DNA of 64,000 nt from Escherichia coli (lineage in GTDB: Bacteria > Pseudomonadota > Gammaproteobacteria > Enterobacterales > Enterobacteriaceae): assembly GCF_001677475.2 (NCBI RefSeq), contig NZ_CP015229.1. One strand, given 5' to 3'. A program made the position numbers. Positions 58,757 to 61,700 of the stretch are shown piece after piece. Position 1 is the stretch's first letter. Each line of letters opens with the position of its first letter.

Positions 58757-61700
58757 TAACAAAAGCAATTTTTCCGGCTATCTGTATACAAAAACGCCGC
58801 AAAGTTTGAGCGAAGTCAATAAACTCTCTACCCATTCAGGGCAATATCTCTCTTGCAGGTGAATGCAACGTCAAGCGATGGGCGTTGCGCTCCATATTGT
58901 CTTACTTCCTTTTTTGAATTACTGCATAGCACAATTGATTCGTACGACGCCGACTTTGATGAGTCGGCTTTTTTTTGCCTGTTATTTATCAGCGTCTACC
59001 CTTTAAGAGTCCACCCAATGACCGGAGGGAAATATGACGACACTTATTTATTTGCAAATTCCTGTCCCTGAACCGATTCCTGGCGATCCTGTTCCAGTGC
59101 CCGATCCGATCCCTCGCCCGCAACCCATGCCTGACCCACCACCCGACGAAGAACCGATTAAATTGTCGCATCGTGAGCGTAGATCTGCGAGGATACGCGC
59201 CTTCTAACTTTGCGTCGATGACCACGAGAATAGATTGTGACCGCTTTTTCTACCCTGAATGTTTTGCCTCCCGCCCAACTCACGAACCTTGATGAGTTGG
59301 GTTATTTAACCATGACGCCGGTGCAGGCCGCCGCGCTTCCGGCGATCCTTGCCGGAAAAGATGTTCGCGTGCAGGCGAAAACCGGCAGCGGCAAAACGGC
59401 GGCTTTTGGCCTCGGCTTGTTACAGCAAATTGATGCGTCGCTATTTCAAACCCAGGCTTTAGTGCTGTGTCCTACGCGTGAACTGGCGGATCAGGTAGCA
59501 GGCGAATTGCGTCGGCTGGCGCGTTTTTTGCCAAATACCAAAATTTTGACGTTGTGCGGTGGTCAACCGTTCGGTATGCAGCGTGATTCGTTGCAACATG
59601 CGCCGCATATTATCGTGGCAACGCCGGGTCGTTTGCTGGATCACTTGCAAAAAGGCACGGTATCACTGGATGCGTTGAATACGCTGGTGATGGATGAGGC
59701 AGACCGCATGCTGGATATGGGATTTAGCGACGCCATTGATGATGTCATCCGTTTTGCGCCAGCATCTCGACAGACGCTTCTGTTTTCGGCAACCTGGCCG
59801 GAAGCCATCGCCGCAATCAGCGGACGAGTGCAACGCGATCCTTTAGCGATTGAAATTGACTCAACAGATGCTCTGCCACCTATTGAACAACAATTTTATG
59901 AGACATCCAGCAAAGGCAAAATTCCGTTGTTGCAACGGTTATTAAGTTTGCATCAGCCATCCTCTTGCGTGGTGTTTTGCAATACCAAAAAAGATTGCCA
60001 GGCTGTCTGCGACGCGCTGAATGAAGTAAGGCAAAGTGCATTGTCGTTACACGGCGATCTGGAGCAACGTGATCGCGATCAGACACTGGTACGTTTTGCT
60101 AACGGTAGCGCCCGTGTACTGGTTGCGACTGATGTTGCTGCGCGAGGTCTGGATATTAAATCGCTTGAGCTGGTGGTGAACTTTGAGCTGGCGTGGGATC
60201 CTGAAGTTCATGTACATCGCATCGGTCGCACAGCGCGTGCAGGAAATAGCGGTCTGGCGATCAGTTTCTGTGCTCCGGAAGAAGCACAGCGGGCCAATAT
60301 CATTTCTGACATGTTGCAGATAAAACTTAACTGGCAAACGCCGCCAGTTAATAGTTCCATTGTGCCGCTGGAAGCCGAAATGGCAACGTTATGTATCGAT
60401 GGCGGGAAAAAAGCCAAAATGCGCCCGGGTGATGTATTAGGTGCGCTGACAGGAGATATCGGGCTTGATGGCGCAGATATTGGCAAAATCGCCGTGCATC
60501 CGGCGCATGTCTATGTCGCGGTGCGTCAGGCTGTTGCTCATAAAGCATGGAAACAGTTACAGGGCGGGAAGATTAAAGGAAAAACGTGCCGGGTGCGGTT
60601 ATTAAAATAATGAAATGTTGAATTGCCGGGTGCAAGAGTAAACATCTTCTTCGGCATTGCCGGATGCGACGCTGACCGCGTCTAATCGGGCTACATAAGA
60701 GTAGCCCGATAAGCTTGCGCATCGGGCGCTATCCTGTTATTTCACTTCAACCACATTCAGCCGTAACTCATCCAACTGATTTTCATCTTCTTCAGGCTGC
60801 CAGCCCGCCGGTTGTAGTGGGATCTCTTCGCGATCAAACGCCAGATCACCCCCGTTAACCACTTCAGAACCGTGGGTAATGCCTTTGAAATCGAACAGGT
60901 TGGTATCGCACAGATGCGACGGCACCACATTCTGCATCGCGCTGAACATCGTCTCGATACGCCCCGGATAACGTTTATCCCAGTCACGCAACATGTCAGC
61001 AATCACCTGACGTTGCAGGTTAGGCTGTGAACCGCACAGGTTGCACGGAATAATCGGGAACGCTTTTGCATCGGCAAACCGCTGAATATCTTTCTCGCGG
61101 CAGTAGGCCAGCGGACGAATAACGATATGTTTGCCATCATCGCTCATCAGTTTCGGAGGCATACCTTTCATCTTGCCGCCGTAGAACATATTTAAGAACA
61201 GCGTCTGCAGGATATCGTCACGATGGTGACCCAGCGCGATCTTCGTCGCCCCCAGTTCCGTTGCGGTACGATAAAGGATACCGCGACGAAGGCGAGAACA
61301 CAGTGAGCAAGTGGTTTTGCCCTCTGGAATCTTCTCTTTCACGATACCGTAAGTGTTCTCTTCAACAATCTTGTACTCAACGCCCAGCTTTTCAAGATAC
61401 TCGGGCAGAACGTGTTCCGGGAAACCCGGTTGCTTTTGATCGAGGTTAACAGCCACCAGCGAAAAATTGATTGGCGCGCTTTGCTGCAAATTGCGCAGAA
61501 TCTCCAGCATGGTATAGCTGTCTTTACCCCCTGAGAGGCAAACCATGATGCGATCGCCTTCTTCAATCATATTGAAGTCAGCAATGGCTTCGCCCACGTT
61601 ACGACGCAGACGTTTTTGTAATTTGTTCAGGTTGTATTGTTCTTTCTTTGTAATTTGTTGATTTTCTTGCATTATTTCAGTTCTCTGGTACTAAATGGGG

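Follow-up and report, generated by a model that had tools for sequence, protein, structure and literature searches.

YnaL, a small proline-rich protein gene of Escherichia coli, and its putative translational coupling to dbpA

Proline codons in short leader open reading frames (ORFs) are used to sense translation in mgtP, in the Salmonella mgtCBR leader, and in mgtL, in the mgtA leader. A different arrangement is that of secM-secA, in which an upstream ORF with a conserved C-terminus ending in ..IRA-x lies close to the downstream start, and another is that of translationally coupled operon pairs, in which a strong upstream start is followed at a short conserved distance by a gene with a weak Shine-Dalgarno (SD) sequence and a non-AUG start. 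The present work concerns ynaL, an ORF in a 64,000-nucleotide stretch of the E. coli chromosome (contig NZ_CP015229.1; the whole of this stretch is called the window below), where it lies between the gene for the small RNA (sRNA) FnrS and dbpA, the gene for an ATP-dependent, 23S rRNA-specific DEAD-box helicase (coordinates in Table 1). As with mgtP and mgtL, a short ORF with consecutive proline codons is found upstream, and the status of elongation factor P (EF-P) or of prolyl-tRNA would in principle be readable in it. However, mgtP and mgtL are far shorter and act through defined alternative hairpins or Rho, whereas ynaL has 57 codons, its C-terminal 40 residues are constrained, its product accumulates, and its PPP motif is dispensable in some lineages. 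The arrangement of secM-secA is also shared, but the likeness is one of three residues, the position of the stop codon is not fixed relative to the motif, and dbpA has no strong stem that would sequester its ribosome-binding site (RBS). The pair ynaL-dbpA shares with coupled operon pairs each of the features listed above and differs from them in the distance between the two genes, as discussed below.

The ynaL gene itself is already known; what is new here is the synteny of the locus, the constraint on the peptide, the presence of nucleotide-frozen blocks in the last third of the ORF, and the conserved weak start of dbpA. Our preferred explanation, which we hold tentatively and with slightly less than even confidence, is that YnaL is a genuine small protein and that initiation at dbpA is, in addition, coupled in cis to the translation of ynaL.

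The ynaL gene, its product and its conservation

The ORF is ynaL, a known, named and experimentally detected small-protein gene with its own Pfam family. Although the original prediction took the ORF for unannotated, it is annotated in K-12 MG1655 as ynaL (b4743, 1409308..1409481; YP_009518775.1), K-12 coordinates being those of the window plus 1,350,274, and it carries this name in RefSeq. The position between fnrS and dbpA and the length are the same as in K-12, 56 of 57 residues are identical, and the sole difference is the final residue, F here and C in K-12. The Pfam family PF23677 ('Protein YnaL-like') is matched over its full length (E 2.7e-39, 133.3 bits; residues 1-56 against model positions 1-56 of 57). 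In a megablast search the region 58760-59260 was matched in 5392 of 5426 complete E. coli genomes, in 5390 of them with at least 80% coverage and at least 95% identity, and all 29 full-length matches among 30 evenly sampled rows are annotated as 'proline-rich small protein YnaL' or 'protein YnaL'. It has been reported that YnaL carrying a chromosomal 3' sequential peptide affinity (SPA) tag gives a specific immunoblot band in lysogeny broth (LB) cultures of MG1655, and YnaL is one of 13 proteins of that study that had already appeared, unidentified, among the positives of a screen by tetracycline-arrested ribosome profiling (TetRP) (VanOrsdel et al. 2018, Proteomics 18:1700064, PMC6001520). 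The same authors pointed out that ynaL adjoins dbpA and proposed that the two might form an operon and be related in function. No further paper in the literature searched discusses YnaL, and the 3'-end tables of Adams 2021 have no entry for ynaL, dbpA or fnrS. The option of an independent small protein, which the original prediction had offered beside that of a leader peptide, agrees with the published SPA band and TetRP signal as well as with the purifying selection on the peptide described below.

The ORF, its GGAGGG SD sequence, its ATG start, its 57 codons and its coordinates were as originally described, and the high density of Pro-X-Pro claimed for its product was borne out. The peptide, MTTLIYLQIPVPEPIPGDPVPVPDPIPRPQPMPDPPPDEEPIKLSHRERRSARIRAF, contains 16 prolines among its 57 residues, all of them within residues 10-41, where they make up 50% of the stretch, and they form 12 P-x-P triplets and a single PPP (residues 35-37) within a DPPPD motif. 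The ORF does lie directly upstream of the dbpA GTG, at a distance of 29 nucleotides (nt) and not the 30 nt first given. Residues 1-41 of YnaL carry a net charge of -6, and residues 42-57 one of +5. An alternating P-x-P composition and a predicted extended form are shared with the proline-rich spacer of TonB and with proline-rich antimicrobial peptides, but the likeness is compositional only, and the Pro-rich part of YnaL is acidic and not cationic. A TonB-like domain was considered and rejected (NF008084, 20.8 bits against a cut-off of 315; Pfam TonB_N, E 0.75). The AlphaFold2 (AF2) model of YnaL is an extended chain without secondary structure and with a predicted template modelling score (pTM) of 0.23, and therefore a fold search would be meaningless. 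The YnaL of this strain ends in Phe (TTC, 59202-59204), and residue 57 is the single variable position in an otherwise invariant SARIRA-x tail; among 107 homologue clusters the ending is ..IRAC in 64, ..IRAI in 23, and ..IRAF in 1.

Selection on the peptide was measured as the proportions of non-synonymous (pN) and synonymous (pS) differences, pooled over twelve species, each compared with E. coli. For 23 Pro-rich codons (residues 18-40), which sit within the wider P-x-P stretch of residues 10-41 (59061-59156), pS was 0.76 and thus saturated, while pN was 0.061, giving a pN/pS of 0.08; codons 11-210 of dbpA gave a pS of 0.66, a pN of 0.066, and a pN/pS of 0.10. The Pro-rich amino acid sequence is therefore selected as strongly as the DbpA helicase. 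In a 42-codon core of 28 distinct sequences, the entropies at codon positions 1, 2, and 3 were 0.22, 0.19, and 0.84. The analysis of conservation and synonymous substitution that had been proposed as a check thus returned a conserved frame together with the low pN/pS over these 23 codons. These results bear on the reading that the ORF is a chance open stretch in a non-coding 5' leader of dbpA. ORFs of 30-100 codons are common by chance in the window, and since an ORF listing of the window has dozens of 30-100 residues near ynaL, the length of ynaL alone is compatible with chance. We nevertheless count ynaL as real, because its frame, start and SD sequence are conserved over about 11 genera, its codon-position pattern and pN/pS are of the coding type, and its tagged product has been detected; insertions and deletions are also in frame. 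A chance ORF has thus virtually no probability left, and this reading may be regarded as already refuted. Every related genome examined keeps the frame, and published data report occupancy by ribosomes, so that neither of the findings that the original prediction had named as fatal to it was made.

A protein search returned 164 relatives, and the 120 of them that were listed all carry PF23677; they belong to Escherichia, Salmonella, Citrobacter, Enterobacter, Klebsiella, Leclercia, Lelliottia, Kosakonia, Pseudocitrobacter, Superficieibacter, and Intestinirhabdus. When a single genome of each species was scanned, 27 loci were obtained, to which 4 further loci, including those of Klebsiella and Kosakonia, were added to make 31. 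The order and orientation zntB-fnrS-ynaL-dbpA were kept in 27 of 27 loci of the genome scan, and at the 4 further loci the order CorA-family gene, YnaL, DbpA was kept. This synteny, in 31 of 31 loci from about 11 genera, is a new observation. At each of the 27 genome-scan loci the frame of ynaL is kept open, and GGAGG precedes the ORF at all but a few of them, E. whittamii, Escherichia sp. E1V33, and Pseudocitrobacter having AAAGGG/UAAGGGG instead. The distance from the ynaL stop to the dbpA GTG is 27-29 nt in 26 of the 28 loci formed by the window and the genome scan, 23 nt in two Citrobacter loci, and 30 nt in Kosakonia. When 31 homologues were aligned, the first 15 or so residues were found to vary freely, while a core, DPVPxPDPIPRPQPMPDPPPDEEPIK(L/M)SH...RSARIRAC, was invariant or nearly so. 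Length variants of YnaL are all in frame. For instance, E. coli E69 (L010, 3001-3135) has an 11-codon in-frame deletion in the P-x-P repeat, and Salmonella protein P0069 has an in-frame duplication of 10 residues, PDPRPHPQPM; the repeat appears to be prone to slippage with the reading frame always kept. In Klebsiella (L031/L032, 1501-1695), YnaL has 64 residues and continues for 7 codons past ..IRAC with tails of the RSSVL type, and its stop codon lies 14 nt before the dbpA GTG, within the equivalent of the E. coli intercistronic spacer; one gene caller stretched the Klebsiella dbpA upstream to 477 residues, overlapping ynaL. In E. coli STEC388 (L035, 2801-3498), the insertion sequence IS1A is found at the 5' end of ynaL, which it cuts off from the SD sequence and from fnrS. 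RefSeq annotates a ynaL of 61 residues there, and this strain is a natural mutant in which a dependence of dbpA expression on ynaL translation might show. In the Escherichia, Salmonella, Citrobacter, Enterobacter, Klebsiella, and Kosakonia part of the Enterobacteriaceae, ynaL and dbpA are a conserved two-gene unit.

Nucleotide-frozen blocks in ynaL and initiation at dbpA

The two starts of this unit differ in predicted strength. When the 20 nt upstream of each start were paired with the 3' end of 16S rRNA, the predicted energy for ynaL, which has an AUG start, was -10.0 kcal/mol here and on average -9.3 kcal/mol over 20 species, while that for dbpA, which has a GUG start, was about -3.0 kcal/mol in 20 of 20 species. 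With a gap of 14-30 nt, a weak SD sequence and a GUG at dbpA, and no terminator predicted between ynaL and dbpA by a terminator scan, the geometry is that of a coupled pair. Nucleotide conservation runs unbroken from the 3' end of ynaL into the start of dbpA, where it takes in roughly the first nine codons. Other stretches that are invariant at the nucleotide level are CGAGA, 8 nt before the dbpA GTG, and T8GCCT and CTACCCT, upstream of the ynaL SD sequence.

The most interesting element found in this analysis is a pair of blocks, C and D, in the last third of ynaL (Table 1). In block C, synonymous changes were found at 0 of 46 pooled synonymous sites (pN 0.035; pN/pS not defined), and in block D, whose codons are AGA TCT GCG AGG ATA CGC GCC (59181-59201), at 0 of 72 (pN 0.011). 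Thus 0 of 118 pooled synonymous sites changed in the two blocks, while neighbouring synonymous sites are saturated, and the three codons that link the blocks are nearly neutral. Neither block shows a synonymous substitution across about 20 species. Block C is almost invariant in nucleotide sequence; block D is fully so in 20 species-level loci, and its sequence is unique in the window. It includes AGA, AGG, and ATA, which are among the rarest codons of E. coli and are invariant at positions 50, 53, and 54. Both blocks are unchanged in Klebsiella, and each has one substitution in Kosakonia (GCG to GAG in block D). The lack of synonymous change shows that something besides the YnaL peptide is encoded in the last third of ynaL and the junction. 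Block D further contains a GATC site, and its GCG-AGGAUA-CGC might fold into a hairpin that has GGA in the loop; the idea of a CsrA site there is an idea only, and no cross-linking and immunoprecipitation (CLIP) literature linking CsrA with dbpA was found.

Searches at this locus for structure, a promoter, an overlapping ORF, and rRNA complementarity gave no explanation of blocks C and D. In the RNAalifold consensus, the covariation term was only -1.21 kcal/mol and no supported helix ran through the blocks. A permissive Rfam scan of 58000-60000 gave FnrS alone, and a known RNA family was therefore rejected. Mimicry of, or complementarity to, 23S rRNA, as might serve DbpA autoregulation, was rejected as well at the level of sequence: in local alignments of 59151-59245 against K-12 rrlH in both senses, using the whole gene, with the helix 90-92 target of DbpA, and the 2440-2620 subset, scores were no higher than those of shuffled sequences. 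Dual coding was rejected too: an open antisense frame exists in mirror register, with its first codon positions on the freely varying third positions of ynaL, and the +1 frame has no conserved start and is interrupted by intergenic indels. A programmed frameshift or fusion of ynaL with dbpA is contradicted by gaps of 14, 23, 27, 28, 29, and 30 nt, which leave no constant frame relation, and by a TAG that is in frame with dbpA, two codons before its GTG. An internal sigma-70 promoter was also rejected, since none was called in 58600-59400 and TTGTCG in block C has, by eye, no acceptable -10 element at 16-18 nt.

The explanation that we favour would account for these features as follows. The YnaL peptide, an acidic extended P-x-P rod with a basic tail, is selected for its own sequence and would therefore make a specific contact; the likeliest partner is one that acts in ribosome biogenesis or translation. 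Ribosomes that initiate at the strong ynaL start and finish at its stop codon would feed or unmask the poor dbpA start, and the invariant blocks C and D would belong to the region that controls dbpA initiation. Alternatively, YnaL might be an independent small protein that acts only in trans, being co-transcribed with dbpA without any influence in cis, with the frozen blocks serving another purpose. In favour of this, YnaL accumulates detectably and is selected over about 40 residues, as functional proteins typically are and leaders less so; in addition, the 29-nt gap involves no overlap, and no transducing RNA structure was found. However, an action in trans alone is at variance with the weak SD sequence and GUG of dbpA, which are conserved and always lie within 30 nt of the ynaL stop, with the nucleotide conservation that continues across the junction, and with the lack of a predicted sigma-70-like promoter inside ynaL. 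We consider this alternative doubtful, though by no means negligible.

Several observations weigh against coupling in cis, or against the wider role proposed for the peptide. The effect of ynaL on dbpA in cis is one that we infer from sequence, and blocks C and D might just as well serve as a promoter inside ynaL, as a site bound by a protein, or as the target of an sRNA. The gap, 29 nt here and 14-30 nt overall, is longer than in classic coupled operon pairs, whose genes abut or overlap, as in ATGA or TAATG. The region 59010-59300 folds no better than shuffled sequence (minimum free energy z = -0.17), and the pairwise duplex energies of the invariant blocks and the dbpA start are within the range of shuffles, the best of them, between blocks C and D (-10.1 kcal/mol), being equalled by 8% of shuffles. 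RNAalifold gave a possible 5-bp hairpin of CACGA (59223-59227) with UUGUG (59235-59239) that takes in the dbpA GUG, but it is weak, contains G-U pairs, and shows one-sided changes only, without compensatory change. With respect to the peptide, we know of no partner for it, and a profile search of the PDB with YnaL gave 0 relatives. Finally, a proline-rich upstream ORF was not found at 4 distant dbpA loci, where DbpA is 50-60% identical and the neighbours are different, so that ynaL is a lineage-specific companion of dbpA and not a general feature of dbpA genes.

Readings in which elongation of ynaL is sensed

The original prediction also raised the possibility that the proline codons make ynaL an EF-P-sensing leader. 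In such a leader, low EF-P would stall ribosomes at D-PPP-D and thereby alter dbpA expression through polarity, Rho loading, or reduced re-initiation. If this were true, DbpA would be tied to the elongation capacity of the cell. The mRNA of 59080-59169 is C-rich and G-poor (GC skew -0.40 to -0.44), a composition typical of Rho utilisation (rut) sites, and untranslated ynaL RNA might thus be a Rho target upstream of dbpA. This rut-like character of the Pro-codon stretch is one point in favour of the reading, and others are that PPP and PPD are EF-P-dependent contexts present in a short ORF upstream of dbpA, that PDPPPDE is found in 99 of 107 homologue clusters, that a weak dbpA SD sequence and GUG follow closely in every species, and that the levels of both DbpA and EF-P are higher in exponential phase, although this is a correlation only. 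In addition, the strong ynaL SD sequence should make a stall rate-limiting, given that EF-P effects depend on the initiation rate. It has been shown that PPP lowers reporter expression at least 4-fold in an efp mutant in every context tested, and that PPD is common among the strongest pauses in vivo (Elgamal 2014).

However, only 2.8% of PPX motifs pause significantly in vivo (Elgamal 2014), and several features of the locus do not fit. The PPP context is replaced by PSP in E. albertii and the C. youngae group and by PPQ in C. amalonaticus (3 and 2 of the 107 clusters, respectively), with the rest of the peptide and the junction kept, and 4 clusters with no Pro-Pro anywhere likewise keep the remaining peptide and the junction, which argues that the motif is not indispensable. 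Moreover, about 95 nt separate the PPP from the dbpA start, more than a ribosome footprint covers, the constraint spans 23 codons and thus exceeds the PPP context, YnaL is readily made in the wild type, the 4 distant dbpA loci lack such an ORF, and the fold, RNAalifold, and duplex tests revealed no alternative or stall-transmitting RNA structure. No paper in the literature searched ties dbpA or ynaL mechanistically to EF-P. It is therefore unlikely that ynaL serves as an EF-P-sensing leader. Under the coupling that we favour, the D-PPP-D of E. coli should still confer sensitivity to EF-P on the translation of ynaL and, by way of coupling, on DbpA output, and such sensitivity is most likely a side property of most family members and not the conserved core.

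An arrest peptide of the SecM/TnaC/MifM type, in which the last 40 or so residues would slow elongation or termination within the exit tunnel so that the parked ribosome opens the dbpA start, can be weighed on the same data. The conserved segment does consist of about 40 C-terminal residues, which is about one tunnel length, with the N-terminal 15 or so free to vary; the invariant rare codons AGA, AGG, and AUA and the ..ARIRA(C/I/F)-stop would contribute to slowing, and the small hairpin takes in the dbpA GUG. The I-R-A also falls in what we take to be the same A-site register as in the SecM arrest motif GIRAG-P, but this match is a post-hoc resemblance of three residues. In Klebsiella and a few others, the ORF extends 2-7 codons past ..IRAC, which shifts the stop relative to the motif; invariance at synonymous sites is not explained by a signal that resides in the peptide alone; the hairpin at the dbpA start is weak and without covariation, not the RBS-sequestering structure looked for; and full-length YnaL accumulates. 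Arrest of this type is thus very unlikely.

A further possibility is that ynaL-dbpA forms a feedback loop from peptidyl-transferase performance to assembly of the peptidyl-transferase centre. The 40 C-terminal residues of YnaL would fill the exit tunnel, where the prolines, the PPP, the AGA/AGG/AUA codons, and the ..IRA-x-stop would tax peptide bond formation and termination, the speed with which ynaL is finished would set in cis the use of the weak dbpA GUG, and the RNA component of this switch would be supplied by blocks C and D. DbpA remodels the helix 89-92 region of 23S rRNA during 50S assembly, and if the loop exists, cells would thereby adjust DbpA to ribosome quality. We regard this loop as speculative and quite improbable.

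Upstream features and significance of the ynaL-dbpA unit

The order of genes along the window is dgcM, ynaN, zntB, fnrS, ynaL, dbpA, and ttcA, and the features of the locus are collected in Table 1.

Table 1. Coordinates in the window of the features of the ynaL-dbpA locus.
Feature	Position	Strand	Remarks
FnrS sRNA gene with intrinsic terminator	58855..58972	+	Rfam RF01796, 134.8 bits, E 1.4e-25; K-12 fnrS b4699
Candidate sigma-70-like promoter of ynaL-dbpA	58975..59002	+	TTGCCT 58975-58980, 16-nt spacer, (C)TACCCT 58997-59002
ynaL SD sequence GGAGGG	59024..59029	+	4 nt ahead of ATG
ynaL coding sequence	59034..59207	+	57 codons, ATG 59034, TAA 59205-59207
Codons 18-40 of ynaL, measured for dN/dS (non-synonymous over synonymous change)	59085..59153	+	DPVPVPDPIPRPQPMPDPPPDEE; purifying selection at the amino acid level
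PPP, codons 35-37, within D-PPP-D (residues 34-38)	59136..59144	+	EF-P-dependent stall site predicted from sequence
Block C, CCGATTAAA(T/A)TGTCGCAT	59154..59171	+	codons CCG ATT AAA TTG TCG CAT (P-I-K-L-S-H)
Three-codon linker, R-E-R in E. coli	59172..59180	+	pS 0.71, pN 0.52, pN/pS 0.74; nearly neutral
Block D, GATCTGCGAGGATACGCGCC	59182..59201	+	codons R-S-A-R-I-R-A
ynaL-dbpA intercistronic spacer	59208..59236	+	29 nt; weak dbpA SD sequence CGAGA at 59225-59229
dbpA	59237..60610	+	GTG start

The FnrS gene, whose terminator was placed by the terminator scan at a stem at 58949-58968 plus a T-run, forms the upstream boundary of the ynaL-dbpA unit. It is intact and is 96-100% identical over the 27 genome-scan loci, far above the flanking intergenic DNA. 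An FNR box, TTGAGCGAAGTCAA, lies upstream of it at 58806-58819 (Grainger et al.). A second short upstream ORF in the neighbourhood of ynaL is the 15-codon ORF at 57715-57762, 13 nt upstream of zntB, which is the annotated micro-protein gene ynaN (b4773).

Between FnrS and ynaL, the TTGCCT and TACCCT hexamers are invariant in 20 species and the spacer between them is variable, which is consistent with a putative promoter of ynaL-dbpA, although a consensus promoter scan did not call the pair and the spacer has lost 9 nt in two Citrobacter loci. The sequence TCTACCCT occurs only twice in the window, against 0.64 copies expected. It is found on the + strand both times, ahead of the ynaL SD sequence (58995-59002) and in dbpA codons 5-7 (59249-59256), so that the two copies flank ynaL. 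Judged by its sequence, the upstream copy could be the -10 element (TACCCT) that goes with TTGCCT. In an older study, a lacZ fusion that ran from the 3' end of zntB to the dbpA start codon had low activity, which was scarcely affected by FNR; this is in keeping with efficient termination after FnrS and with poor expression of dbpA, and we count the low activity in favour of coupling.

Since ynaL is already catalogued, the present findings add nothing to its annotation. The combination of a peptide constrained as strongly as DbpA, frozen stretches of 18-20 nt, and a poor dbpA start nevertheless makes a link in cis between ynaL and DbpA one that can be tested cheaply. If this link is true, ynaL would be a further small ORF that serves both as a protein gene and as a regulatory element.

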